A stretch of 64,000 nt of DNA from Candidatus Aminicenantes bacterium (GTDB lineage: Bacteria; Acidobacteriota; Aminicenantia; Aminicenantales; Saccharicenantaceae): positions 59,247-123,246 of the forward strand of contig JAXDAV010000032.1 in the NCBI GenBank assembly GCA_034679465.1. The letters are read 5' to 3'. Shown in pieces: positions 577 to 28,452 of this stretch (positions are counted from its first letter, which is position 1; each line of letters starts with the position of its first letter). The position numbers and the translations under genes are program-made. The notes beneath the pieces were generated by a model that worked only from the letters and a program-made list of their open reading frames with translations, searched no databases and had not been told where the DNA came from.

Positions 577-1650
577 CTATTCCTCGAGGATGACGGCCCT
601 CGCCGGGGGAAGCGAAAGCGAGGCCCGGGCGGAAACGGAGCTGCCGCCCGAGGTGGTCCGGGCGTAGGCGAAAGACAGGACGCTGACCTTCTGATAGGAA
701 GGCGGCAGGGGCCTCGGCGGCTTCTTGGCTATGAGGTCTTTGATCGCTTTGTAGGCCAGGGCCAGGGCGTCGACGATGTTGACCCCGCTGGCCATGGGGT
801 CGTTCTTCGGCGGCGGCATGTACGGCTTCTGGCCCTGCATGAGCGGCCCGCCGAGGGGGAAGGTGAACGCGGCCGGAGTGGCGGCGATCTTGCGGCTGCG
901 CAAGACCAGCTTGCCGTCGATATAGAGGGAGATCTCGCCCTCCCGGACCGGGTTCGACGGCGTGGCCGGGCGCGGCGAGAACAAGTCCTGGGACGACGGT
1001 CCGGCCGGCTGGGCCATGTCGACGATGTCGACGTGGAGGCGGATCGGCTTGCGGCAGATGATATCGCCGGCTTTGAGATCGAGGATGAACTCGTAGGTGT
1101 CCGTGCGATCGAAGAGCCCGCGCAGGGGTATGGTCAGGATGTGAAAGCCCTTCGGCCAGTGGCCCCCCTCGAGGACGTAGGGACCGAGCGAGATCCGGTA
1201 GAACGCCTCGTTCAGGAGCTCGAGACCGACGTCGACCGAAGCCGGAAGGCCGGTCGCCGGCGTCCTGGCGTAGGAGAGGAGGTTGAGATCGTAGACCAGG
1301 GGATAGACCCGCTTCCAGGAGGCCCAGAAGCTGAGGAGGCCGCGGATGGCGTATTCGTTGAGAAAGCCGAAGTCGGGGTCGTTGTCGAGATAGGTCTCGA
1401 AATAGTCCGCGGTCAGGGCCCTTTCGGCCGCCCGGTCGCCCAGCTTGGAGGCGAGGAAAGGCAGGATGAACGCCGCGGCCTGCCTGTCTTCCGCTTCGAG
1501 ATTTTTGGACTCCTCGGAGAGGTAATCCCAGGCGGCCCGGTAGTCGGGAGCGCGGCCGAGGAGCGAACTCAGCTCCTGCTTCCAGTCCGCCCGCAGAGAG
1601 GCGGCGACGGCGAGGAGGACGGCCAGGGCAACCGCGAATCTTCTAATCAT
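577..1650 (-). CDS. secreted hypothetical protein (N-terminal signal peptide)
   Basis: N-terminus MIRRFAVALAVLLAVAASLRA looks like a signal peptide. No recognisable catalytic motif. Its start overlaps the upstream TonB gene by 8 nt (1643-1650). Confidence 0.55.
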   Translation of the reverse strand: MIRRFAVALAVLLAVAASLRADWKQELSSLLGRAPDYRAAWDYLSEESKNLEAEDRQAAAFILPFLASKLGDRAAERALTADYFETYLDNDPDFGFLNEYAIRGLLSFWASWKRVYPLVYDLNLLSYARTPATGLPASVDVGLELLNEAFYRISLGPYVLEGGHWPKGFHILTIPLRGLFDRTDTYEFILDLKAGDIICRKPIRLHVDIVDMAQPAGPSSQDLFSPRPATPSNPVREGEISLYIDGKLVLRSRKIAATPAAFTFPLGGPLMQGQKPYMPPPKNDPMASGVNIVDALALAYKAIKDLIAKKPPRPLPPSYQKVSVLSFAYARTTSGGSSVSARASLSLPPARAVILEE

Positions 1651-2584
1651 TGTAGACGAACTCGAAGGTTATCTCGAGGAGGTCGCCGGGGAAATCGGCG
1701 GGCAGGGCGGGGAAGGGGAGCGAGGCCCGGAGGGCTTCGAGCGCGGACCGGTCGAGGAGCTCGAGGCTGGTCCCTTCGAGGATCTCGATCGAATCGAGCT
1801 CGCCGGTCTTCTTGATGACGACGATCATGCTGATCTTGGCCGCTTGGGGGACCTCCGGCACGGAGGGCAGGGTCCAGTTGACCTGCAGCCGGTCGATGAC
1901 GGACGTGGCCCACGGCAGAAGATCGTAGTCCTTGATGGGGATGGACATCCCGACCCGCTGGCGTCCGCCGCCGCCGCCGCTGCCCGATCCCCGGCCGCCG
2001 GTCCCGGGGCCGTATCCGCCCACGCCCCCGGGATAGGCGCCCCGGCTGTATTTCGAAAAATCAGGGAGGGGGGCCCCGCCGCCGATCCCGGGAGGGCCGG
2101 GAGGCGTTCCCGGCGGGGCGAGGGGGATGGTCAGGTCTGATTTGCCGTGCGTGGTGATCGACTCCCGGAACTTGGAAGACAGGGAGGGGATGGCGGAACC
2201 GGAGCCCGGGGGCGGGACGAGCCAACCAGCGCCCGGGATGGCATCCCCCGGGGCGAGCGTCTGCTCGGGCGCGGCTTCCGGGCCCGGCTCGGGCTCCGCC
2301 GGGCGCTTGGCCTCCGGGCCGGGCCCGGCGGGCCCCTGCGGTCCCGGAACGTCGGCGAGGCCCCGGCCTCCGACGATCCGGGGGATGCTCACCCCGAGGG
2401 GCGGAACGATGACGACCGAGCGGACCTCCTCCTTCCCGACGGGCAGGATCTTGACCGTGAACCGGCCGTAATAGACGAGCACGCCCAGGAGGGCATGAAA
2501 GAGCAGAGTGACGATGAGACCGAGGGCCCGATCGCGGCGCGACAAGGAGCTCTTTTCCGGCGGGGAGAGCGGATTCTCTTGCAT
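1643..2584 (-). CDS. tonB: TonB family protein (energy transducer, C-terminal domain)
   Basis: N-terminal TM anchor (LIVTLLFHALLGVLVYY), a long Pro/Gly-rich spacer, and a C-terminal TonB-like fold (...SIEILEGTSLELLDRSALEALRASLPFPALP...). Confidence 0.7.
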   Translation of the reverse strand: MQENPLSPPEKSSLSRRDRALGLIVTLLFHALLGVLVYYGRFTVKILPVGKEEVRSVVIVPPLGVSIPRIVGGRGLADVPGPQGPAGPGPEAKRPAEPEPGPEAAPEQTLAPGDAIPGAGWLVPPPGSGSAIPSLSSKFRESITTHGKSDLTIPLAPPGTPPGPPGIGGGAPLPDFSKYSRGAYPGGVGGYGPGTGGRGSGSGGGGGRQRVGMSIPIKDYDLLPWATSVIDRLQVNWTLPSVPEVPQAAKISMIVVIKKTGELDSIEILEGTSLELLDRSALEALRASLPFPALPADFPGDLLEITFEFVYND

Positions 2585-2646: not shown

Positions 2647-4821
2647 TCAGCGTCGGGCGACGGAAACGAGGTAGAGGAAGCAGGCGGCGTTGAGGAGGGT
2701 CAGGCGGAGGAGAAGCGCCGGGATTCCGAACAGGGGGATGATCAGGCCCGAGGCGAGGATGACGCCGGCGAACGAAGCCAGCAGGTCGATGCCGTAACCG
2801 AGGCCGGGATGGGGCGTCCCGGGGAGGAGGCGCCTGTTGGCCGAGACGAAAAGGGCCCCCGAAAGGACGCCGAAGCCGAAGAGGAGGGCGAAGGGAACGG
2901 GCTCGCCGGTCCCGGCCGAAAGGCTCAGCGAGGTCAGAAGCAAAAGGCCCACGAAGAGGCCCTGGACGACGACCAGGTCCGATCGGCCCGGGCGCTTTCT
3001 CGAGCGGGCCGCGAACGATCCGATGACCAGTCCGGCCATGAACAGGGCCAGGAGAAGGGGGATCTTTCCGTAGACGAAACCGAAGCGGGACTGAATGACG
3101 ATGAAGACGGCCAGCTCGACGGCCATCGACGTGAAGCCCATGACCGCCACCGGGATAAGGAACCGGGCCGGCCCTCGCCTTCGGAAGAGCGCGAGAGCGC
3201 CGAGCCCGAGGGCGAAGAGCCCGAGCGGAGCGTCGAGGAGCCAGGCCGGGCCGATGCGGCCCGCGGCCCGGAGGAGCCCGGCTTCGAAGCCGCGGAACTG
3301 GGCCGCCCACAGGACGGCATGGAAATAGTAGCTCACCGGGACGAGGTCGCGGTTGATCCTGGCCCCGGGTGCGGACAGCTTGCCGGCGAGATATTCGAGG
3401 CGGGCCGGATCGAGGCGGGCCGGGAGCATGCCGGGGCTGACGAAGCGCAGGCCCAGGCCGAGCCGGTCGACGGCCTCCGAGAGCCGCGCGGGATCGACGG
3501 TGAGGGGGCCGTCGGAGGCCAGGAAGACGCAGTTCGCGCCGGGCACGGCCCGGACCTCGGGGAAGACGCCCCGAAGGGTGGCCGCGAGCGAGCTCAGGAA
3601 CTGGGCGAGAGGCTCGCTGATGTAATTCTCGGCCGAGGGGACGACGAAGCCGAAGACGCCCCCGGGCGAAAGCCTGTCCCGCGCCTCCAGGAAGAACTCC
3701 CGGGTGTAATACCGGTTGACCTGGGCCGTCGCCGGCGGGGGCAGGCTGAGGAGGATCGCGTCGTAGCGCTCGGCCGTCCGGGCGAGAAAGGCCCGGCCGT
3801 CGCGATGGAAGATGCCGACCCGCGGGTCGTCGAGGGCGGCGCGGTCCGACCCGGTCAGATGCTTCTTCGCCAGCCGGATGACGGCCGGGTCGATCTCGAC
3901 GCAATCGACGCGGATGCCCGGGTGCTTCAGGGCCTCGGCCGCCCCGCCGCTCGCGCCGCCGCCGATCAGCAGGACGCGGCGCGGCCCTTCGCGCTGAAGA
4001 AGCGCGAAGTGGACCGATTCCTCGGCCGCTCCCACGTCCGGGTGGGAAAAGACGGCGATGCCGTTGTCGAAGAAGGTGACCTGCTCCTCGTTCCGGATGA
4101 CCTGGAGCCGGCCGTACGGCGTGTCCTCCGTGTCGACGAGGCTCAGCGGCCGCCAGGCGGCCTTCTGGGCCGGGACGTCCCAAACGGCGATCCCGGCCGC
4201 CAGAGCCAAGGCCAGGGCCGCGGCGAGGGCCGGCTTCGCCCGCACGGGCCTCAGCGTGACCAGGACGGCGATCGCGGCCGCCGCGCCGGCCGCGGCGGCG
4301 CCCTGCCAGTTCGACAGGCGCGGGATGAGCGCGAAGTGAACGACGAGGCCGGCCGCGGCCGCCCCGGCCGATTCGAGCAGGTAGACCGTCGCGACGTCGC
4401 CGCCGAGGAGCCCGGCGTTCAGGGCGAAGGCGTGTCCCAGGGGAAAGCTCAGGAGCAGGCCCAGGGCGAAAGCGAACCCGAGGGCGGGCAAAAGGCCGGT
4501 CAGCTCGGCCGGGAGGATGCCCAAGATCCGATGGGAGAACCTCAAGGCGGCCAGCCCGAGGGCGAAAAGCGCGATCACGAGGCCGTAGAGACCCGCGAGC
4601 CTCGCCGCCCCGCCCGGCTTCCTTCCGGGCTTGATCAGGCTGCCGGCCCCGCCCCAGAAGAGCCAGGCGCCGAGAACGAGGCCGAAGATGAGCTCGTTGC
4701 CCGTGAATTCGGCGCCGAATTCCCTGAGGAGGAAGGCCTGGAAGGCCGTGGCCAGGAAGCCCAGGATGAAAGGCGGCAGCCGGGGGCTCAGGCCCAGATC
4801 CCGGGGATCGGCGTCCCGCAT
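2647..4821 (-). CDS. polytopic membrane protein fused to a spermidine synthase-like (PABS) domain
   Basis: An N-terminal block of hydrophobic helices, then a PABS-like domain (VLLIGGGASGGAAE..VDCVEIDPAVI..DAILLSLPPP), then more TM helices. True start placed at the ATG encoding MRDADPRDL, since the upstream 300 codons of the listed ORF are an Arg-rich artefact overlapping the radical SAM gene. Overlaps the radical SAM gene by 34 nt. Confidence 0.65.
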   Translation of the reverse strand: MRDADPRDLGLSPRLPPFILGFLATAFQAFLLREFGAEFTGNELIFGLVLGAWLFWGGAGSLIKPGRKPGGAARLAGLYGLVIALFALGLAALRFSHRILGILPAELTGLLPALGFAFALGLLLSFPLGHAFALNAGLLGGDVATVYLLESAGAAAAGLVVHFALIPRLSNWQGAAAAGAAAAIAVLVTLRPVRAKPALAAALALALAAGIAVWDVPAQKAAWRPLSLVDTEDTPYGRLQVIRNEEQVTFFDNGIAVFSHPDVGAAEESVHFALLQREGPRRVLLIGGGASGGAAEALKHPGIRVDCVEIDPAVIRLAKKHLTGSDRAALDDPRVGIFHRDGRAFLARTAERYDAILLSLPPPATAQVNRYYTREFFLEARDRLSPGGVFGFVVPSAENYISEPLAQFLSSLAATLRGVFPEVRAVPGANCVFLASDGPLTVDPARLSEAVDRLGLGLRFVSPGMLPARLDPARLEYLAGKLSAPGARINRDLVPVSYYFHAVLWAAQFRGFEAGLLRAAGRIGPAWLLDAPLGLFALGLGALALFRRRGPARFLIPVAVMGFTSMAVELAVFIVIQSRFGFVYGKIPLLLALFMAGLVIGSFAARSRKRPGRSDLVVVQGLFVGLLLLTSLSLSAGTGEPVPFALLFGFGVLSGALFVSANRRLLPGTPHPGLGYGIDLLASFAGVILASGLIIPLFGIPALLLRLTLLNAACFLYLVSVARR

Positions 4822-5912
4822 GTCGCGCACTTGCCCTTTTTGAGCCCGCCGGCCTCGACGCTGTATCCGGTCCTGCGGATGACCTCCTTGCCGCAACCGG
4901 GGCAGTACGTGTTCTCGCCCTCGTGGCCGGGGATGTTGCCGACGTAGACGAAGCGCAGGCCCTCCTCGAGCGCGACGCGACGGGCCGCCTCGAGCGTGGA
5001 CACGGGCGTGGGAGGCAGGTTCTTGACCAGGTACATCGGATGGAAGCGGGTGAAATGGAGCGGGACGCGGGCGCCGGCCTCGTCCCCGATCCAGCGGCAC
5101 ATGTCGCGGATGACGTCCATCCTGTCGTTCAGCGTCGGGATGACCAGGTAGACGATCTCGAGCCAGACCTTGGACCGGGCCACGGTCCGGATGGTCTCCA
5201 GCACGGGCTCGAGGCCGCCCCGCACGTACTCGGCGTAGAACGTCTCCGTGAATCCCTTGAGATCGACCTTGACGGCGTCGACGACTTCCAAGAGGTCGGT
5301 GAGCGGTCCGGGGTTGATGTGGCCGCCGGTCACCACGACGCTGCGGACGCCCCTGCGCCTGGCCTGAACGGCCGTATCGTACATGTACTCGAAGAAGACG
5401 ATCGGTTCCGAATAGGTGTAGGCGATCGAGGGACAGCGGGACGCGGCGGCCCGGGCGGCCGCGGCTTCGGGGGCCAGGTCGAAGGCCTCGATCTGCTCGG
5501 GCCGGACCTGGGAGATCTCCCAGTTCTGGCAGAACCTGCAGTTCACGTTGCATCCGGCCGTGGCCAGGGACAGGGCCGGCGTGCCCGGCAGGACATGATA
5601 GAAGGGCTTCTTTTCGATGGGGTCGATGTTGAGACTGCAGACCTTGCCGTAGACGAGCGTGTAGTAGGCGCCGCCGATGTTCTCCCGGACGCCGCAATAC
5701 CCCCGTTCCTTGTCGCCGAGCCGGCAGAGCCTGGGGCAGAGCCGGCATTCGATCTCCCGGTCGGGGAGCTTGGCGTAGTAGCGGGCCTCAACGCGGGAGA
5801 GATTCGGCCCGGACGCGGCCGCCTCCAGGCGGCGCCCGACCGCGGGCAGGCCGCCGCCCAGGACCAGGCCGGCGCCCGCGGCGCCGCCGCGCAGGAAGCT
5901 CCGCCTGTTCAT
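4788..5912 (-). CDS. radical SAM enzyme, AmmeMemoRadiSam (AmrS/TIGR04337-like) type, with N-terminal twin-arginine signal
   Basis: CNVNCRFCQNW is a Cx3Cx2C radical SAM cluster motif. N-terminal CRLCPRLC...YCGVREN...DPIEKKPFYHVLPGT is typical of AmrS-type enzymes. The first 40 aa (MNRRSFLRGGAAGAGLVLGGGLPAVGRRLEAAAS) form a canonical Tat signal. No alternative in-frame ATG/GTG/TTG start lies downstream. The ATG overlaps the DUF362 stop (ATGA). Confidence 0.8.
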   Translation of the reverse strand: MNRRSFLRGGAAGAGLVLGGGLPAVGRRLEAAASGPNLSRVEARYYAKLPDREIECRLCPRLCRLGDKERGYCGVRENIGGAYYTLVYGKVCSLNIDPIEKKPFYHVLPGTPALSLATAGCNVNCRFCQNWEISQVRPEQIEAFDLAPEAAAARAAASRCPSIAYTYSEPIVFFEYMYDTAVQARRRGVRSVVVTGGHINPGPLTDLLEVVDAVKVDLKGFTETFYAEYVRGGLEPVLETIRTVARSKVWLEIVYLVIPTLNDRMDVIRDMCRWIGDEAGARVPLHFTRFHPMYLVKNLPPTPVSTLEAARRVALEEGLRFVYVGNIPGHEGENTYCPGCGKEVIRRTGYSVEAGGLKKGKCATCGTPIPGIWA

Positions 5913-6793
5913 TCGACCGTCTCCTCGACCGTCTCGATCGATTCCGGGTCGGCGGCGCCGAGGCCCATCTTTGCGGCCGTCCGGAGATAGCCCGGGGCCC
6001 GGCCCTCTTCCCGGAGGGTCGGCAGTCCCGCGGCCCCGCGGAGCCGCTCGACAATGGACCAGCCGACGGCGTCGGCGGCCACGGGATCGAGGCTGAAGAC
6101 GAGGCCCCCGAACTTGCCGGCCCAGCGGGCATGATACGACGGGCCTCTATGGAACTGGACGACGAGGGCGTCGAGGACGGTCAGGCGGTGCTTGGATTTG
6201 ACCGGCGGCGCGTCGAAGACCTCGGCGACGAAGGGATCACAGCGGCCGTCGTGATACTTGTTCGGATTGTGGATGGCCCCGAAGTAGTTCTTCAGGCCCC
6301 CCGTCACGCCGGCCAGACCATGGTCCTTGAGGATGGCCAGGCTGATCGAGGCCGTGACGAGCTCGGTCTGGATCTTCGAAAAGAGGCTCCCCACGCCGAG
6401 GTGGGCGACGAGGTCCGGTCCGTAACCGACGCCGTCCGCGTCCGTGCCGAAGACCTTGATCCCGTTCCGGGCGGCGGTGACGGCGTAGCCGGCGTCCCGG
6501 AGCTCCCGCGTCGTCCGGTCCCAGACGAAGAGGTTCTTCTCGGCGAGGCCGTTGCGGCCGAGCCACCCGGCGAGGGACAGGGCGACCTCGGGCCGGGTGC
6601 TGAGGGCCCGGCCGCCGATGGTGTTGACCTTGATGCCGACGCGGTCGTCCGGCCGGAAGAGCCCCGGGCCGCCGCCGAGGAGGGCGAGCCCCCGGGCGAA
6701 CAGGCGGTCGACGACCGCCCGGTCGGGATCGCCGCCGGGCCTCCAGGCGCGCTCCGAGCGGACGACGACGACGCGCGATCTGGCCATGGTCAT
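5909..6793 (-). CDS. DUF362 domain protein
   Basis: Central ...AILKDHGLAGVTGGLKNYFGAIHNPNKYHDG... resembles DUF362 family members. Start taken at MTMARSRVVVV rather than the Arg-rich upstream extension. 4-nt overlap with the downstream radical SAM gene. Confidence 0.6.
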   Translation of the reverse strand: MTMARSRVVVVRSERAWRPGGDPDRAVVDRLFARGLALLGGGPGLFRPDDRVGIKVNTIGGRALSTRPEVALSLAGWLGRNGLAEKNLFVWDRTTRELRDAGYAVTAARNGIKVFGTDADGVGYGPDLVAHLGVGSLFSKIQTELVTASISLAILKDHGLAGVTGGLKNYFGAIHNPNKYHDGRCDPFVAEVFDAPPVKSKHRLTVLDALVVQFHRGPSYHARWAGKFGGLVFSLDPVAADAVGWSIVERLRGAAGLPTLREEGRAPGYLRTAAKMGLGAADPESIETVEETVE

Positions 6794-6918: not shown

Positions 6919-7848
6919 ATGACAAGCGCGCTTCATCAGAGGGTCCCGGCCGTCGCGGCGGTCCTGGCGGTCCTTGTCTTTCCGGCGCCGGCGGCCGTCC
7001 CCCAGGCGCGCCCGGCCAGCCCCGAGCTGGCCGCCCTGGCCCCCAGGCTCGAGTCCTGGACGGCGTCGACCGCCCCCCGGAGCTACTTCCCCGATGACCT
7101 GTTCGAGTACATCAACGGCGCGGCCGAGAGCTACCTGAGCTACGATTTCCGCGAGCTGCTTGTCGTCGACCTCGAAAGGGCGGGCGCCGAGGCCACGCTG
7201 ACGCTGGAGATCTACGACATGGGGCTTCCCCTCAACGCCTTCGGCATCTTCGCGGCCGAGCGCTATCCCGAGAACAAGGTCGTGCCCGTCGGCGAGCTGG
7301 GCTACGTCGAGGGCGAGGCCCTGAACTTCCTCGCCGGCCGGTTCTACGTGAAGATGCTGGCCTTCGGTCTCGGCGAGGCCACGGAGGCGTCCCTCGTCGA
7401 GGCCGCGGCCAAGGTGGCCGGCGGCATCAAGTCTGAGGGCCTGCTCCCGGCGCTCGTCCTGGCCTTTCCCCAAGACGGCCTCGTCGCCCGGAGCGAGCGC
7501 TACATCAAGCGCAACTTCATGGGCTACGAGTTCCTCCATGACGGCTATGTCGCGACGTACGGATCGGGCGGCCGAGAGATCGAGGGCTTCTTCATCGACG
7601 GGGGCACGGAGGCCGAGGCCCAGGGGATGCTGCCGAGGCTCCTGGACGCCCTGGCCGCGGACGGCCAGGCTGTGGAGAAGATCCCGTCCGGCCATCACGC
7701 CCGGAACCGCTACGGCCGGCACCTCTTCATCGCCCGGGTCGGGGCCGTGCTCTGCGGCGCCATGCGCGTCCCCGACGGCCTCGAAGCGGCCGGGCGATCG
7801 CTTCTCGAGTCGACGGCCGCCGCCCTGAAGGGGGGCCGCCCGAAATAG
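6919..7848 (+). CDS. secreted hypothetical protein
   Basis: Start at ATG 6919 (MTSALHQRVPAVAAVLAVLVFPAPAAVPQA looks like a signal peptide) with GGAGG about 8 nt upstream. No recognisable motif. Confidence 0.55.
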   Translation: MTSALHQRVPAVAAVLAVLVFPAPAAVPQARPASPELAALAPRLESWTASTAPRSYFPDDLFEYINGAAESYLSYDFRELLVVDLERAGAEATLTLEIYDMGLPLNAFGIFAAERYPENKVVPVGELGYVEGEALNFLAGRFYVKMLAFGLGEATEASLVEAAAKVAGGIKSEGLLPALVLAFPQDGLVARSERYIKRNFMGYEFLHDGYVATYGSGGREIEGFFIDGGTEAEAQGMLPRLLDALAADGQAVEKIPSGHHARNRYGRHLFIARVGAVLCGAMRVPDGLEAAGRSLLESTAAALKGGRPK

Positions 7849-7875: not shown

Positions 7876-8889
7876 ATGGACGAGGACAGGTACTTCAAGG
7901 CCGCGCTCGCGGTCGTCCTCCTCTTCATCGCCGGCTTCGTCCTGAAGCTGGCCCGGCCGGTCCTGATCCCGTTCATCCTGGCCGTCTTCCTCTCCTACCT
8001 CGTCGACCCCGCGCTGACCTTCCTCACCCGCTGCCGCTGTCCGCGGCCGGGGGCCGTGGTCGCGGTCCTGGCGATGATGTTCGTCTTCCTCTATCTCGCC
8101 GGCGTCCTCGTCTATTCGAGCGGCAAGGCCTTCGTGGCCGAGCTGCCGAAGTACCAGGAGCGGATCGGGGACCTGGTCCGGCTCATCGAATCCGGCCTGG
8201 GCCCGTTCCGGATCGACGTGCCCGCGGCCCTGAGCGGGCTCGACGCCAATCGGGTCGGCACGGCCGTGGTCAAAGCCATCGGCCCGTTCTTCGAACTTCT
8301 CGGCAAGCTCCTGCTCGTCTTCCTCTTCCTCGTCTTTATCGTGGCCGGGCGGGGCCGGGCCGAGAGGAAATTCCCCAGGGCCGTCGGCGACGGCAAGGCC
8401 GGCCGCGTCCGCGGCATCGTCGAGCGCATCAACGTCCAGGTCCGCAAATACCTGATCATCAAGACGGGGGCCAGCCTGGTCAACGGGCTGATGGTCTATG
8501 CGGTCCTGAGCCTCTTCGGCGTCGATTTCGCCCTCCTCTTCGGCCTCGTCGCCTTCCTGCTGAACTTCATCCCCAGCATCGGCTCGCTCCTGGCCGCGAT
8601 CCTGCGCGTCGGGTTTGCCTTCTTCCAGTTCGGCACCTTCTGGACGCCGTTCTGGATCCTGGTCATCACCGTCGGCCTCGACACGATCATGGGCGATTTC
8701 GTCGAGCCGCGGGTCATGGGCAAGGGGCTGGGGCTCAGCCCTCTGCTCGTCTTCTTCTCCCTGCTCTTCTGGGGCTGGCTCTGGGGCATCCCCGGCATGA
8801 TCCTTTCGGTGCCCCTGACGGCGGTCATCAAGATCGTCTGCCAGAACATCCCGTCGCTCAAGCCGGTGGCCGTGCTGATGGGGCCGTGA
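7876..8889 (+). CDS. AI-2E family transporter (UPF0118/PerM-like)
   Basis: About eight TM helices with the characteristic C-terminal ...GIPGMILSVPLTAVIKIV... motif of AI-2E transporters. Confidence 0.75.
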   Translation: MDEDRYFKAALAVVLLFIAGFVLKLARPVLIPFILAVFLSYLVDPALTFLTRCRCPRPGAVVAVLAMMFVFLYLAGVLVYSSGKAFVAELPKYQERIGDLVRLIESGLGPFRIDVPAALSGLDANRVGTAVVKAIGPFFELLGKLLLVFLFLVFIVAGRGRAERKFPRAVGDGKAGRVRGIVERINVQVRKYLIIKTGASLVNGLMVYAVLSLFGVDFALLFGLVAFLLNFIPSIGSLLAAILRVGFAFFQFGTFWTPFWILVITVGLDTIMGDFVEPRVMGKGLGLSPLLVFFSLLFWGWLWGIPGMILSVPLTAVIKIVCQNIPSLKPVAVLMGP

Positions 8890-8907
8890 GGGCGGCCGGG
8901 GACGCCG

Positions 8908-9675
8908 TCAGGGCAGGACCAGGTCGTCGGCCTCGATGACAAAGGCCTCGGGTGAGATCCTCTTGATCTTCCGCCCGAAGAAGGCCTTGAGGGCCTTTTC
9001 GGCCGCCGCCTGTTCGGCCGCCTTCTTGGATGCACCCTTCGACTTGGACAGGACCTTCTCGCCGAGGCGCACCTCGACGGCGAAGATCCGGGCGTGGGGC
9101 GGCCCCTTTTCCGAGAGCAGGCGATAGGCGGGGGCGGGGAGCCCGGCCTTCTGGCAGATCTCCTGGAGGGCCGACTTGGAGTTGTTGATCGTTTGCGATT
9201 CGGCTCGGATGGGCTTCCGGCAGGGCTCGAGAAGGCCGCAGAGATACGATTTCGCGGCCTCGAATCCGCCGTCGAGATAGACCGCGCCGGCCAGGGCCTC
9301 GAAGGCGCCGGCCAGGATCGAGACTTTCTTCCGGCCGCCGCTCTTCTCTTCGCCGCGGCCGAGGCGGATGGCCTTGTCGAGCTTGAGGGTTCGGGCGAGA
9401 TGGGCCAGCGCCAGCGTGCTCGTCGCCGCGGCCTTGAGCTTGGACAGCTCGCCCTCGCTCCGTCCCGGGAAGGCGCGGTGGAAGAACTCGGCGGTGACCA
9501 GCCCGACGACGGAATCGCCCAGGAATTCGAGCAGCTCGTTGTCCTCCGGGGCCCCGGGGGCCTTTTCGTAGGCGTAGGAGCTGTGGGTCAGGGCTTTGGC
9601 GAGCAGGTCCCGGTCCGCGAAAGCGTAGCCGATCGCCTTCTCCAGGCGGTCGAGCGTCCTGCGGTCCGCGGTCAT
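8908..9675 (-). CDS. rnc: ribonuclease III
   Basis: RNase III signature ELLEFLGDSVVGLV plus a C-terminal dsRBD (KSALQEICQKAGLPAPAY...). Confidence 0.9.
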   Translation of the reverse strand: MTADRRTLDRLEKAIGYAFADRDLLAKALTHSSYAYEKAPGAPEDNELLEFLGDSVVGLVTAEFFHRAFPGRSEGELSKLKAAATSTLALAHLARTLKLDKAIRLGRGEEKSGGRKKVSILAGAFEALAGAVYLDGGFEAAKSYLCGLLEPCRKPIRAESQTINNSKSALQEICQKAGLPAPAYRLLSEKGPPHARIFAVEVRLGEKVLSKSKGASKKAAEQAAAEKALKAFFGRKIKRISPEAFVIEADDLVLP

Positions 9676-26742: not shown

Positions 26743-28452
26743 ATGAAAACCATGAAAAGACGGGACTTCCTTCAGGGCGCGGTCAAGACGGCGGTGGCGG
26801 CCTCGGCTGGAGGGGCCGGCCTCCTCCTCCGGGGTTGCTCCAAGGGCCGGGAATTCGACCTGCTCATCGCCGGCGGGACGATCTTCGACGGGACGGGCGG
26901 GCCGCCTTTCCGGGCCGACGTGGGCGTCTCGGGCGACACGATCCGGGCGATCGGCCGGATCGCGAGGTCCCGGGCCGCGGCGGTGATCGAGGCCGACGGG
27001 CTGGCCGTCTCGCCCGGCTTCGTCGACGTCCACGACCACACCGACACCGGCCTGCTCGTCAATCCCAAGGCCGAAAGCGCGGTCCGCCAGGGCGTGACCA
27101 CGCTGGTCAGCGGCCAGTGCGGCGGCTCTCCCTTCCCCCTGACGGACAAGGACGCGGAGGCGTTGGCCCGCCGGCTGGCCGAGGAGCACGGTCTCCAGGG
27201 GGGCTGGCGCGATATCCGGGGCTTTCTCGCGCGGATCGAAGAGGCCGGCACGGCCGTCAACTACACCACGTTCGTCGGCCACGGCACCGTTCGTTCGGCC
27301 GCCATGGGCAACGACGACAGGCCGGCCACGGCCGGGGAGCTCGAGAAGATGAAGGCCTACGTGGCCGAGGCCATGGCCGGCGGGGCCCTGGGCCTGTCGT
27401 CGGGACTCGAATACGCGCCCGGCAGCTTCGGCTCGACCGAGGAGCTCATCGAGCTCAGCCGGGTGGCCGCCCGGACCGGCGGCGTCTATGCGACCCACAT
27501 GCGGGACGAAGAGACCTTCATCCTCGAGGCGGTCGAGGAGGCCCTGCGCATCGCCAGGGAGACGCCCATCCGTCTTCAGATCTCCCACCTCAAGGTCGGG
27601 CTCGCGCCGAACTGGCCGAAGATCGAGCCGCTCCTGGACATGCTGGAGAAGGCCCGGGCGGAGGGGCTCGATTTCCGGGCCGACCGCTACCCGTATATCG
27701 CCAGCGCGACCGGCCTGGCCACGATCTTCCCGATCTGGGCGCGGGCGGGCGGCGCCGAGGGCTTCGTTGCCAGGCTCAAGGACCCGGCCCACGACGCCCG
27801 CATCCGGGCCCACATCGCCGGGCAGGAGCGAGACTACGGCTCGTGGGACAAGATCCTCATCTCCGAGGTGGGCTCGGACAAGAACCGCGCGCTCGAGGGG
27901 ACGACCGTCCTCGAAGCGGCCCAAAGGGCCGGGAAGGCCCCCTACGAGTTCATGCGCGACCTCATCGTCGAGGAGTCCAACCGCGTGGGCATGGTCGCCT
28001 TCTACGGGAACGAGGAGATCCTCGAGCGGATCCTGGCCCGCCCGTACATCGGGATCGGGGCGGACGGCAGCGCCGTCGCGCCCTACGGGGCTTTGAGCAA
28101 AGGGAAGCCCCATCCCCGGACCTACGGGACCTATCCCCGGGCCCTCGGCAGGTATGTCCGCGAAGAAAGGATGGTGCCGCTCGAGGAGATGGTCCGGAAA
28201 ATCACGGCCATGCCGGCCGCCCAGATGGGCTTCGTCCGCCGGGGCCTGCTCAAGGCCGGCTGGGCCGCCGACGTCTGCGTCTTCGACCCCGACCGGATCA
28301 TCGACAAGGCGACCTTCAAGGACCCGGCGGTCTACCCGGAAGGCGTCCACAAGGTCATCGTGAACGGCCAGCTCGTCGTCGACGAGGGGACGCACACCGG
28401 GCGCCTCCCGGGGCGGGTTCTGAGGAAGAACGAGCGGGGGGCGGTGGCGTGA
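26743..28452 (+). CDS. D-aminoacylase family amidohydrolase (N-acyl-D-amino acid deacylase-like) with Tat signal
   Basis: Tat motif MKRRDFLQGAV. Metal-dependent amidohydrolase ligands (FVDVHDHTD...) and overall similarity to the D-aminoacylase family. Confidence 0.75.
   Translation: MKTMKRRDFLQGAVKTAVAASAGGAGLLLRGCSKGREFDLLIAGGTIFDGTGGPPFRADVGVSGDTIRAIGRIARSRAAAVIEADGLAVSPGFVDVHDHTDTGLLVNPKAESAVRQGVTTLVSGQCGGSPFPLTDKDAEALARRLAEEHGLQGGWRDIRGFLARIEEAGTAVNYTTFVGHGTVRSAAMGNDDRPATAGELEKMKAYVAEAMAGGALGLSSGLEYAPGSFGSTEELIELSRVAARTGGVYATHMRDEETFILEAVEEALRIARETPIRLQISHLKVGLAPNWPKIEPLLDMLEKARAEGLDFRADRYPYIASATGLATIFPIWARAGGAEGFVARLKDPAHDARIRAHIAGQERDYGSWDKILISEVGSDKNRALEGTTVLEAAQRAGKAPYEFMRDLIVEESNRVGMVAFYGNEEILERILARPYIGIGADGSAVAPYGALSKGKPHPRTYGTYPRALGRYVREERMVPLEEMVRKITAMPAAQMGFVRRGLLKAGWAADVCVFDPDRIIDKATFKDPAVYPEGVHKVIVNGQLVVDEGTHTGRLPGRVLRKNERGAVA

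Follow-up and report, generated by a model that had tools for sequence, protein, structure and literature searches.

A candidate twin-arginine leader on an AmmeMemoRadiSam-type radical SAM enzyme of Aminicenantes and related bacteria

Radical SAM enzymes are viewed as strictly cytoplasmic because they require SAM, Fe-S cluster assembly, and low-potential electrons. What, then, is to be made of a gene whose product is a radical SAM enzyme with what looks like a twin-arginine (Tat) export signal at its N-terminus? We met this question in a 64,000-nucleotide stretch of a Candidatus Aminicenantes genome (hereafter the window), where an earlier note had drawn attention to such a leader on a homologue of AmrS, the radical SAM protein of the AmmeMemoRadiSam system, and had called export of such an enzyme very unusual. 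That judgement stands because the literature we searched offered no precedent for an exported or periplasmic radical SAM enzyme, only exported substrates of such enzymes; Burroughs et al. 2019 (JBC), which reportedly gives the chief comparison of gene contexts for Memo, AMMECR1, and the radical SAM enzyme, may mention secreted versions. Our preferred answer, to which we assign a probability of roughly 0.6, is that residues 1-41 serve as a functional Tat signal and that AmrS is exported and acts in a version of the AmmeMemoRadiSam system that works outside the cytoplasm.

The gene, its start, and its leader

The gene at window positions 4788-5912 (minus strand) encodes a 374-aa AmmeMemoRadiSam-type enzyme whose translation begins MNRRSFLRGGAAGAGLVLGGGLPAVGRRLEAAASGPNLSRVEARYY. 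It matches TIGR04337 at 376.4 bits (cut-off 220) across residues 43-373, and canonical AmrS homologues begin at the position where this match begins. The extension therefore precedes the canonical start, as had been proposed, with the TIGR04337 match opening only at residue 43. On the basis of the translation, the TIGR04337 boundary, the AF2 model, and the conservation profile, we delimit the leader as codons 1-41 (5790-5912, minus strand), followed by a mature catalytic domain comprising residues 42-374 and the stop codon (4788-5789, minus strand), which is matched by both TIGR04337 and PF04055. Residues 1-38 have pLDDT values below 50 in the AF2 model and the fold starts at about residue 41, which leaves the leader unstructured and outside the AmrS fold.

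This leader is not a start-codon artefact. The first in-frame ATG, GTG, or TTG after the annotated ATG is codon 123, which lies within the CX3CX2C motif, and translation from that point would miss the N-terminal Cys4 set as well as the first cysteine of the radical SAM motif. The leader has a GC3 of 0.95 and the remaining codons one of 0.92. The AmrS start codon overlaps the stop codon of an upstream DUF362 gene in an ATGA sequence at 5909-5912 (minus strand), an arrangement suited to translational coupling, and direct reading of the sequence places a Shine-Dalgarno-like GAGGAG 8 nt 5' of the ATG (5921-5926, minus strand). Thus, the absence of an alternative start, the coding-like GC3, and the coupling to DUF362, all claimed in the earlier note, were borne out. 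A tight DUF362-AmrS junction (-3 to +9 nt) is also found in Aminicenantes-type loci L003-L008 and L024, and the identical AmrS gene call has been obtained independently in other assemblies. A 1033-aa ORF at 2647-5748 (minus strand) was rejected as an extra gene; it is an over-extended in-frame upstream reading of the SpeE-like gene described below, and its upstream part overlaps AmrS in a different frame.

The leader reads as MNRRSFLR, a Gly/Ala-rich h-region, and then RRLEAAAS, and all three elements were confirmed in the translation as first described. The sequence N-R-R-S-F-L-R at residues 2-8 follows the S/T-R-R-x-F-L-K-like Tat motif, with RRxFL at residues 3-7 and the Arg3-Arg4 pair encoded by AGG CGG at 5901-5906 (minus strand); this pair is marked out by its conservation, by alignment A1, and by codon usage. 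The h-region, GGAAGAGLVLGGGLPAVG, occupies residues 9-26 (5835-5888, minus strand) and is Gly/Ala-rich with moderate hydrophobicity only, and the c-region, residues 27-34 (5811-5834, minus strand), combines basic residues with a candidate site for signal peptidase I of A-x-A-like form. Together these segments give the tripartite conservation profile of a Tat leader, including a predicted cleavage site. Furthermore, the passenger appears to be of the kind that Tat carries, namely a protein that would fold and receive its cofactor in the cytoplasm, as judged from its Fe-S cysteine motifs and radical SAM fold. These motifs are an N-terminal Cys4 set (C56/C59/C63/C73), the radical SAM motif C121-x3-C125-x2-C128 (5529-5552, minus strand), and a C-terminal Cys4 set (C337/C340/C362/C365).

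The Pfam TAT_signal family PF10518 scored AmrS at 18.0 bits (E = 0.0026), below its gathering score of 22.7, and TIGR01409 was absent among the 15 NCBIfam families listed for AmrS at E <= 0.01. The Pfam family matches just 2 of 27 clade members and is therefore too insensitive to weigh against a Tat signal. An N-terminal RRx-hydrophobic motif with an uncharged stretch behind it occurs in only 2 of the 133 window ORFs that are at least 150 aa long, so the pattern exceeds what chance would supply. The second of these ORFs, at 26743-28452, is a plausible Tat or lipoprotein amidohydrolase, and its leader suggests that the organism uses Tat. Neither tatA nor tatC was found within the 64-kb window or in 80 related loci, which is weak evidence because the TatA and TatC probes were approximate E. 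coli sequences. A lipobox reading of Cys26 (LPSLC, present in 48% of close homologues) was also considered and set aside, as positions -3 to -1 depart from the lipobox consensus.

Conservation and phylogenetic range of the leader

Among the outcomes that would count against an export signal, the earlier note had named orthologues that universally lack the extension, together with use of a non-canonical start. The extension is not missing: 116 of 120 close homologues have the leader, and some 50 of the 80 genome loci retrieved from many phyla, with an 8-sequence alignment as the scan query, retain it with an invariant RR pair. Among the close homologues (n = 117), R3 is conserved at 0.98 and R4 at 0.99, and R3, R4, and F6 all stand at 98-99%. 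The composition of the h-region is kept in an AAGAGLxLGxGLP pattern, and the window protein has one inserted residue there (G9) that 99% of close homologues do not share. The c-region is the most variable part of AmrS, with a mean column entropy of 2.26 bits versus 0.38 in the mature domain. At greater distance, the RR pair is invariant among 27 relatives of 36-78% identity spanning many phyla (alignment A1), and its coding varies widely, with all six Arg codons in use and 29 different codon pairs among 52 loci.

We also compared 150 representatives drawn from 50%-identity clusters. An RR leader is present in 31 of these, an RK leader in 2, a hydrophobic leader in 5, and a long N-terminal extension or fusion in 14, while 67 are canonical, leaderless proteins of 330-350 aa. 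All but two of the 52 leader- or extension-bearing representatives group in one clade of 57, which places the leader-bearing AmrS proteins in one clade apart from the leaderless canonical enzymes. The catalytic cysteine motifs and other conserved columns are common to 31 RR-leader and 55 canonical representatives. Taken together, the comparisons show a leader that is real, evidently selected at the protein level, and restricted to one clade.

The canonical AmmeMemoRadiSam system, in which TIGR04337 accompanies an AMMECR1-like A protein (TIGR04335) and a Memo-like B protein (TIGR04336), has the same catalytic domain as the window AmrS, down to all three cysteine motifs and the conserved residues. 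Canonical AmrS is taken to be cytoplasmic because it is leaderless, whereas the window clade adds a Tat or other leader. The nearest solved fold to the AmrS model is that of PFL-AE (TM-score 0.76, target-normalised). AmrS resembles PFL-AE and other glycyl-radical activases in its CX3CX2C core, in this nearest fold, and in weak sequence matches; it differs from them by its extra N- and C-terminal Cys4 motifs, and PFL-AE is cytoplasmic, unlike the predicted exported AmrS. Membership of the activase family was rejected (TIGR02493 scores 49.8 bits and has its cut-off at 231.75), and no glycyl-radical enzyme is encoded in the AmrS gene neighbourhood.

Partner proteins and their predicted export

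The gene upstream of AmrS encodes a 292-aa DUF362 protein (5909-6787, minus strand; PF04015, 68 bits) that begins directly with MARSRVVVV, has no leader, and overlaps the AmrS start. The upstream DUF362 has an RR leader of its own in 22 loci that are not of the Aminicenantes type; the leaderless form is confined to the Aminicenantes type, with about 8 copies. DUF362 adjacency is in turn confined to RR-leader AmrS genes, being found in 30 of 50 such loci versus 0 of 30 others. Since DUF362 is leaderless here and has a Tat leader in most relatives, and since it adjoins the signal-bearing AmrS, it is likely to be a hitch-hiker of AmrS in this lineage. The earlier note had raised the hitch-hiker idea with AmrS as one of the pair; a likely co-export pair is upheld, but with the roles reversed, in that AmrS bears the signal and the leaderless DUF362 would be the passenger. 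Known Tat-exported Fe-S hitch-hiker complexes include the small and large subunits of NiFe-hydrogenase, formate dehydrogenase, and DmsAB (PMC10924467). As in those complexes, an S/T-RRxFLK-type leader on an Fe-S passenger here stands next to a leaderless partner, a likeness that is drawn from the genes. The known substrates are electron-transfer proteins or molybdo- or Ni-enzymes that need no cytoplasmic co-substrate, whereas AmrS is SAM-dependent.

Directly downstream, and overlapping the 3' end of AmrS by 34 nt, lies a gene for a 724-aa polytopic membrane protein with a central spermidine-synthase-like Rossmann domain (2647-4821, minus strand; PF01564, NF037959). Of the 80 loci, 41 have a homologue of this SpeE-like protein beside AmrS, with the orientation varying. 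The SpeE-like protein has a nucleotide-binding loop, LLIGGG[AV]xG, and its soluble domain (~310 aa) is predicted by the positive-inside heuristic to be periplasmic in 34 homologues. On the other side, a DUF6599 protein with an N-terminal signal peptide is divergently transcribed (6919-7848, plus strand; PF20244), and DUF6599 adjoins the DUF362-AmrS pair in 12 loci.

In relatives, the neighbourhood extends to the other components of the AmmeMemoRadiSam system. A Memo-AMMECR1 fusion (or, in a handful of cases, AMMECR1 or Memo as a gene of its own) adjoins AmrS in about 35 of 80 loci; the adjacent proteins match TIGR04336 and/or TIGR04335, and the fusion matches both. All 30 of the 30 full-length adjacent fusions begin with a hydrophobic Sec- or lipoprotein-type leader. 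Compared with the canonical system, then, the leader clade carries a Memo-AMMECR1 with a signal peptide and has gained DUF362, SpeE-like, DUF6599, and NapH-/CcdA-like neighbours. NapH-like genes neighbour AmrS in 10 loci and DsbD_2 (CcdA-like) genes in 11. In the window, no gene for Memo or AMMECR1 was found, nor was one found in Aminicenantes-type loci L003-L008, and the window likewise has no NapH-like or DsbD_2 gene. Because these components and tat genes were not found in the window, the full system is seen in relatives only.

Gene fusions point in the same direction. Proteins P0139 and P0144 join a transmembrane segment, FMN_bind, and AmrS with no transmembrane helix between the two domains, and other relatives are built as DsbD_2-AmrS, FMN_bind-Fer4_5-AmrS, or a signal peptide followed by CBM11-AmrS, propeller-AmrS, or Memo-AMMECR1-AmrS. 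FMN_bind domains of the kind fused to AmrS are extracytosolic, transmembrane electron transfer is the role of NapH-like and DsbD proteins, and Meheust et al. 2021 described such modules as electron conduits to extracytosolic enzymes (PMC8238504). AmrS relatives resemble these flavinylation systems in being fused to, or encoded beside, FMN_bind, Fer4_5 (NapH-like), and DsbD_2, and the window itself has no such module. Radical SAM, Memo, and AMMECR1 did not come up as clients in a text search of Meheust et al. 2021 (PMC8238504). Overall, the comparisons show that the AmrS leader co-varies with the predicted export signals of its partners and with its gene neighbours, and the window gene belongs to a large clade in which the partner proteins appear to be likewise exported.

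Where the enzyme would act

An AmmeMemoRadiSam pathway operating outside the cytoplasm, in the periplasm, would probably account for these patterns. In our preferred reading, AmrS would fold and be loaded with its Fe-S clusters in the cytoplasm, and the folded protein would then be exported by the Tat translocase, probably with the leaderless, translationally coupled DUF362 co-exported as its hitch-hiker in the Aminicenantes lineage. The leader would be cleaved between AAAS and GP, and AmrS would act at the periplasmic side of the membrane in an extracytoplasmic AmmeMemoRadiSam variant, whose partners in relatives would be a Sec- or lipoprotein-exported Memo-AMMECR1, the SpeE-like membrane protein, and NapH-like, FMN_bind, or CcdA-like electron conduits. 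SAM might arrive pre-bound to AmrS or by way of the SpeE-like protein, and electrons might come through the membrane modules. We infer export, cleavage, co-export, and extracellular catalysis alike, and every one of the localisation arguments rests on sequence heuristics. Neither SAM nor low-potential reductants are known to be available in the periplasm. More tentatively, and with slightly less than even odds in our estimation, the clade may possess a complete periplasmic radical SAM modification pathway comprising Tat-exported AmrS and DUF362, Sec-exported Memo-AMMECR1, transmembrane electron supply through NapH-like, flavinylated, or CcdA-like modules, and SAM or a SAM-derived ligand that is carried with the enzyme or handled by the SpeE-like protein.

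The alternative that survives best is in fact a sub-variant of Tat export and does not contradict it: a Tat-targeted leader may stay uncleaved and, in the manner of Rieske proteins, anchor AmrS by its N-terminus at the periplasmic face near the SpeE-like protein. The adjoining gene does encode a membrane protein, the c-region site is variable, with a strict A-x-A lacking in some homologues, and leaders in sister lineages are strongly hydrophobic and anchor-like. Indeed, in Omnitrophota, Elusimicrobia, and WOR-3 the same Fe-S enzyme has a Sec-like leader that lacks RR, which fits poorly with export of a folded Fe-S protein, so some leaders may be membrane anchors. However, the short, Gly/Pro-rich, and only moderately hydrophobic h-region of the window protein would make a poor stable transmembrane helix, and most homologues have small residues at -3/-1, some 30-35 residues from the start. 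We regard permanent anchoring as unlikely.

Alternatively, the radical SAM chemistry may take place in the cytoplasm before export, with AmrS maturing or activating a distantly LarA-like DUF362 and the leader merely exporting the finished complex. This would dispose of the SAM supply problem, since no periplasmic SAM would be required, and it agrees with the relationship of AmrS to activating enzymes such as PFL-AE and with the tight coupling of the leaderless window DUF362 to AmrS. DUF362 is a member of the LarA clan (PMC11770544) and may bind a cofactor; its AF2 model (pTM 0.83) has a weak similarity to the LarA fold. Yet AmrS and DUF362 each have a Tat leader in most phyla, which makes AmrS unnecessary as a carrier, and 20 of 50 RR-leader AmrS loci have no DUF362 at all. 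The FMN_bind fusions and the CcdA- and NapH-like neighbours, moreover, argue that AmrS needs electrons at a site outside the cell. We consider this proposal a little less likely than a retained anchor.

Less likely again is a leader that does not export, acting instead as a chaperone-binding or proofreading tag, like the vestigial leader of NarG, or as a tether holding the enzyme at the cytoplasmic side of the membrane, within reach of SAM and reductant. These two are known to be at hand in the cytoplasm only, tat genes were not seen nearby with the approximate probes, and the sister lineages have Sec-like leaders, through which a folded Fe-S protein could not be exported. Vestigial Tat leaders, however, have lost the RR pair, which is 98-99% conserved here. 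DUF362 and Memo-AMMECR1 bear independent Tat and Sec/lipoprotein signals, and the fusions to FMN_bind, CBM11, and beta-propeller domains would give the AmrS domain an extracellular position. That the leader is a product of misannotation or chance, with a true start downstream or a non-coding region, is effectively already refuted and close to negligible, as this reading has the sub-threshold Pfam score in its favour and nothing else, and against it stand the want of any in-frame start before codon 123, the cysteines that a start at that codon would lose, the coding-type GC3, the amino acids conserved while codons vary, and the independently repeated gene call.

Clade-wide export signals on a radical SAM enzyme and its partners would overturn the strictly cytoplasmic view of these enzymes. 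Exported AmrS would be a Tat substrate of a new class, and one would have to ask by what route the periplasm obtains SAM and reducing power. The enigmatic Memo and AMMECR1 proteins, which archaea and humans alike have conserved, are linked to human disease. If the periplasmic pathway is real, the substrate of the exported Memo/AMMECR1 branch would be an envelope or lipid molecule rather than RNA. The DUF362-AmrS-SpeE-like gene set, with Memo-AMMECR1 in relatives, is a compact and experimentally tractable operon in which to pursue this. Radical SAM chemistry is already tied to the cell envelope through the maturases of exported proteins, such as anaerobic sulfatase maturases, QhpD, and HxsB/C-type enzymes, in which the enzyme is cytoplasmic and the modified substrate alone is exported. 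A periplasmic effector matured by a radical SAM enzyme is one such case of an exported substrate (PMC13128918). AmrS differs from these maturases in that the predicted export signal lies on the enzyme itself.

The AmrS start and its leader

AmrS, the radical SAM enzyme of the AmmeMemoRadiSam system, is encoded at 4788-5912 on the reverse strand as a 374-aa protein with the N-terminus MNRRSFLRGGAAGAGLVLGGGLPAVGRRLEAAASGPNLSRVEARYY. It matches TIGR04337 with 376 bits against an NCBIfam cut-off of 220, and Pfam finds Radical_SAM; Pfam TAT_signal matches residues 1-18 with 18 bits, which is below its gathering score of 22.7. The TIGR04337 match begins at residue 43, so the twin-arginine (RR) extension of residues 1-41 (5790-5912, reverse strand) does precede the usual AmrS start, as claimed in an earlier note made from the sequence alone. 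That note had also described a coding-like GC3, coupling to the upstream gene and the lack of an alternative in-frame start, all of which held up. GC3 reaches 0.95 over the leader, compared with 0.92 over the remainder of the gene; the ATG, with a GAGGAG Shine-Dalgarno-like site 8 nt 5' of it, overlaps the stop codon of the DUF362 gene (5909-6787, reverse strand) as ATGA; and the next in-frame ATG, GTG or TTG is codon 123, within the CX3CX2C motif, so that any later start would cost the protein its N-terminal Cys4 motif and first radical SAM cysteine. Gene calls from independent assemblies use the same start. A 1033-aa ORF at 2647-5748 (reverse strand), which covers most of AmrS in another frame, was rejected as an extra gene; it is an over-extended reading of the SpeE-like gene downstream, and such in-frame upstream over-extension is frequent in the window's DNA (67.5% GC).

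Whether orthologues share the extension, a question raised in the earlier note, can be answered clearly. The closest homologues come from Candidatus Aminicenantes MAGs, and the leader is present in 116 of 120 (66-91% identity), the other four being N-terminally truncated calls. Across 117 aligned close homologues, R3, R4 and F6 are 98-99% conserved and the h-region keeps its composition as AAGAGLxLGxGLP, while no part of AmrS varies more than the c-region (residues 25-37), whose mean column entropy is 2.26 bits versus 0.38 in the mature domain. The RR pair is invariant amid varying surroundings among 27 AmrS sequences of 36-78% identity, and over 52 loci its coding sequence draws on all six Arg codons, in 29 distinct pairings, a variety that points to selection on Arg-Arg and not on DNA. 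Judged from sequence, then, the leader is clade-specific, is selected as protein and bears every hallmark that a Tat signal should show. This confirms the observation of a Tat-type leader, and we consider it very probable that selection maintains it as a genuine Tat-type targeting signal.

An AlphaFold2 model of AmrS (pTM 0.79) gives residues 1-38 pLDDT values below 50, with the fold starting near residue 41. Among solved structures the PFL-activating enzyme is the closest; membership of the glycyl-radical activases is ruled out by NCBIfam scores. The window copy has an extra Gly9 (codon 9, 5886-5888, reverse strand) relative to 99% of the 117 close homologues, which makes it 374 aa long rather than 373.

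Leader variants in related loci

We sorted the 150 nearest AmrS representatives of 50%-identity clusters by N-terminus. An RR leader was found in 31, an RK leader in 2, a hydrophobic leader without RR in 5, and a long N-terminal extension or fusion in 14; 67 were canonical enzymes of 330-350 aa with no leader, and the remaining 31 consisted of 8 truncated calls and 23 others, mainly with short hydrophilic extensions. In a neighbour-joining tree of the catalytic domain, one clade of 57 takes in 50 of the 52 proteins with a leader or fusion. The leader group retains the residues that canonical enzymes conserve (among them all three Cys motifs, H106, K219, E252, D263 and H286), so that by sequence AmrS proteins of the exported type appear to remain competent radical SAM enzymes.

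Scanning one genome per species yielded 80 AmrS loci from Aminicenantes, Acidobacteriota, Thermodesulfobacteriota/Deltaproteobacteria, Planctomycetota, KSB1, Poribacteria, Eisenbacteria, Latescibacterota, Zixibacteria, Omnitrophota, WOR-3, Elusimicrobia, Brocadiaceae and Bacteroidales. With the window added, regular expressions assigned the 81 loci to an RR leader (50), KR or RK (12), a hydrophobic leader without RR (16) or no leader (2); in one more, L004, the RR pair is there and the uncharged stretch is too short to count as an RR leader. KR or RK stands in place of RR in L054, L070, L073, L077 and L078 (Bacteroidales/Odoribacter/Sunxiuqinia) and in L020, L028, L035 and L043, and examples such as MNKREFLK and LTKREFLRF are natural variants of the twin-arginine motif.

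A Sec-like signal peptide or anchor replaces the Tat leader in L050, L053, L056, L060, L066, L067, L071, L074, L076, L080 and L082, where AmrS lies at about 8001-9100 or at another position of the locus. These orthologues, from Omnitrophota, Elusimicrobia and WOR-3, carry a classical Sec-like leader (for example MKKSLLLLILLLSVLFPAIGADQ in L082), and near them, usually directly downstream, lies a gene for a CcdA-like DsbD_2 protein. No Fe-S enzyme is known to be exported by Sec. Anchors or Tat signals of an atypical kind are possible explanations for these leaders, and another is that the clusters are inserted only once the protein has been exported.

Neighbouring genes and fusions

Neighbour counts come from our own ORF calling and phmmer at loci often cut by contig ends and are lower bounds. 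About 30 loci have a same-strand DUF362 gene directly upstream of AmrS, and in all of them AmrS bears an RR leader (30/50 such loci vs 0/30 of the others). In 22 loci, all outside the Aminicenantes type, this DUF362 starts with an RRxFLK leader of its own; in the window, L003-L008 and L024 it is leaderless and abuts or overlaps the AmrS start. Such a pattern would be expected if the two proteins cooperate extracellularly and the Aminicenantes DUF362 rides on the AmrS signal, which favours the hitch-hiker idea put forward in the earlier note, with AmrS as the carrier and DUF362 as the passenger.

About 35 loci have a Memo-AMMECR1 fusion (TIGR04336 Memo-like B with TIGR04335 AMMECR1-like A) next to AmrS, or in a few cases a separate AMMECR1 or Memo gene in its place. 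Every one of the 30 full-length copies starts with a hydrophobic leader, and a lipobox-like motif occurs in 6. In L038, L041 and L072, a stand-alone leaderless AMMECR1 is encoded just upstream of an AmrS with an N-terminal extension (an RR leader in the first two, a long putative extension in L072). Such loci may represent additional hitch-hiker pairs or mixed localisation.

The SpeE-like gene (2647-4821, reverse strand; 724 aa) shares 34 nt with the 3' end of AmrS, and its product has about seven TM helices, a 310-aa spermidine-synthase-like Rossmann domain and about six further TM helices. Homologues of 700-850 aa, likewise polytopic with a central spermidine-synthase-like domain, adjoin AmrS in 41 of 80 loci in varied orientations. 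In 34 homologues, Lys and Arg abound in the short loops past the TM helices that flank the soluble domain, and the positive-inside rule, a heuristic only, thus places the domain in the periplasm. Its nucleotide (Gly) loop reads LLIGGG[AV]xG. True spermidine synthases have the motif GGGDGG, whose Asp favours decarboxylated SAM; the SpeE-like loop lacks this Asp. Two more same-strand genes follow downstream with an 8-nt mutual overlap, encoding a 313-aa protein with a TonB C-terminal-like domain (1643-2584, reverse strand) and a 357-aa protein (577-1650, reverse strand) with no match in Pfam or NCBIfam.

Divergent from the DUF362-AmrS operon is a gene for a DUF6599 protein with an N-terminal signal peptide (6919-7848, forward strand), a secreted family found beside the operon in 12 loci (Aminicenantes, Acidobacteriota and L024). 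NapH-like polyferredoxin membrane proteins are encoded near AmrS in 10 loci, FMN_bind+Fer4_5 proteins in 5, and CcdA-like DsbD_2 proteins in 11, the last only beside AmrS with a non-RR leader. Partners in this clade thus have predicted export signals of their own together with electron-transfer neighbours, which supports the earlier interpretation and extends it beyond AmrS itself.

Fusions among the nearest AmrS representatives point the same way, towards an extracytoplasmic AmrS. They comprise TM-FMN_bind-AmrS (P0139 and P0144, with no TM helix between FMN_bind and AmrS), FMN_bind-Fer4_5-AmrS (P0140, P0141), DsbD_2-AmrS (P0131, P0135), DsbD_2-FMN_bind-Fer4_5-AmrS (P0132), TM-AmrS-Memo-AMMECR1 (P0138), and AmrS behind a signal peptide followed by CBM11 (P0133), a beta-propeller (P0124) or Memo-AMMECR1 (P0148). 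According to Meheust et al. 2021 (PMC8238504), domains of the FMN_bind type lie outside the cytosol and electrons cross the membrane through NapH-like and DsbD proteins; searching the text of that paper brought up no radical SAM or Memo clients.

Place of action and known systems

We favour, with a probability of roughly 0.6, a Tat-exported AmrS that works extracytoplasmically. AmrS would gain its Fe-S clusters in the cytoplasm, be exported already folded, in Aminicenantes taking the leaderless DUF362 along, and probably be cut near the AAAS-GP junction. It would then act on the periplasmic side with Memo-AMMECR1, which for the window organism may be encoded elsewhere in the genome or be absent from it, and with the SpeE-like membrane protein. 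SAM might be bound before export and used catalytically, the SpeE-like protein might deliver or handle it, or the radical chemistry might be finished before export.

A sub-variant in which the leader stays uncleaved as a Tat anchor is unlikely, as the weak, Gly/Pro-rich h-region seems unfit for a stable helix. Catalysis in the cytoplasm followed by escort export would remove the problem of SAM supply, but AmrS and DUF362 have independent leaders in most phyla and AmrS is fused to extracytosolic electron donors, and we regard this as improbable. Cytoplasmic retention or a vestigial leader is likewise improbable, being contradicted by the conserved RR pair and the exported partners. That the leader is an artefact has a negligible chance, given its coding-type GC3, its agreement across assemblies and the distance to the next start codon.

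If exported, AmrS would represent, as seems somewhat the better bet, a new, extracytoplasmic variant of a known yet uncharacterised system. The window protein is a TIGR04337 member by score and motifs, but the defining Memo/AMMECR1 context is found only in its relatives and not in the 64-kb window. Memo contexts are reportedly tied to nucleotide-base and isoprenoid modification (a view attributed to Burroughs et al. 2019). Earlier comparative work tied AMMECR1 to RNA base modification (PMC4075521); for an exported branch, a lipid or envelope substrate fits better than RNA. AmrS resembles Tat-exported Fe-S proteins and hitch-hiker pairs (PMC10924467) but differs in requiring a cytoplasmic co-substrate. 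No exported radical SAM enzyme or AmmeMemoRadiSam system was found in the literature searched, a set to which Burroughs et al. 2019 did not belong, in keeping with the earlier note's view that such an enzyme would be unusual.

Among the 133 window ORFs of at least 150 aa, an N-terminal RRx-hydrophobic motif followed by an uncharged stretch occurs in two, AmrS and a 569-aa amidohydrolase (PF07969, PF01979; 26743-28452, forward strand). The amidohydrolase begins MKTMKRRDFLQGAVKTAVAASAGGAGLLLRGCSKG, a plausible Tat/lipoprotein leader in which a lipobox-like LLRGC follows the Tat-type part, and this second candidate leader hints at use of the Tat pathway by the organism.
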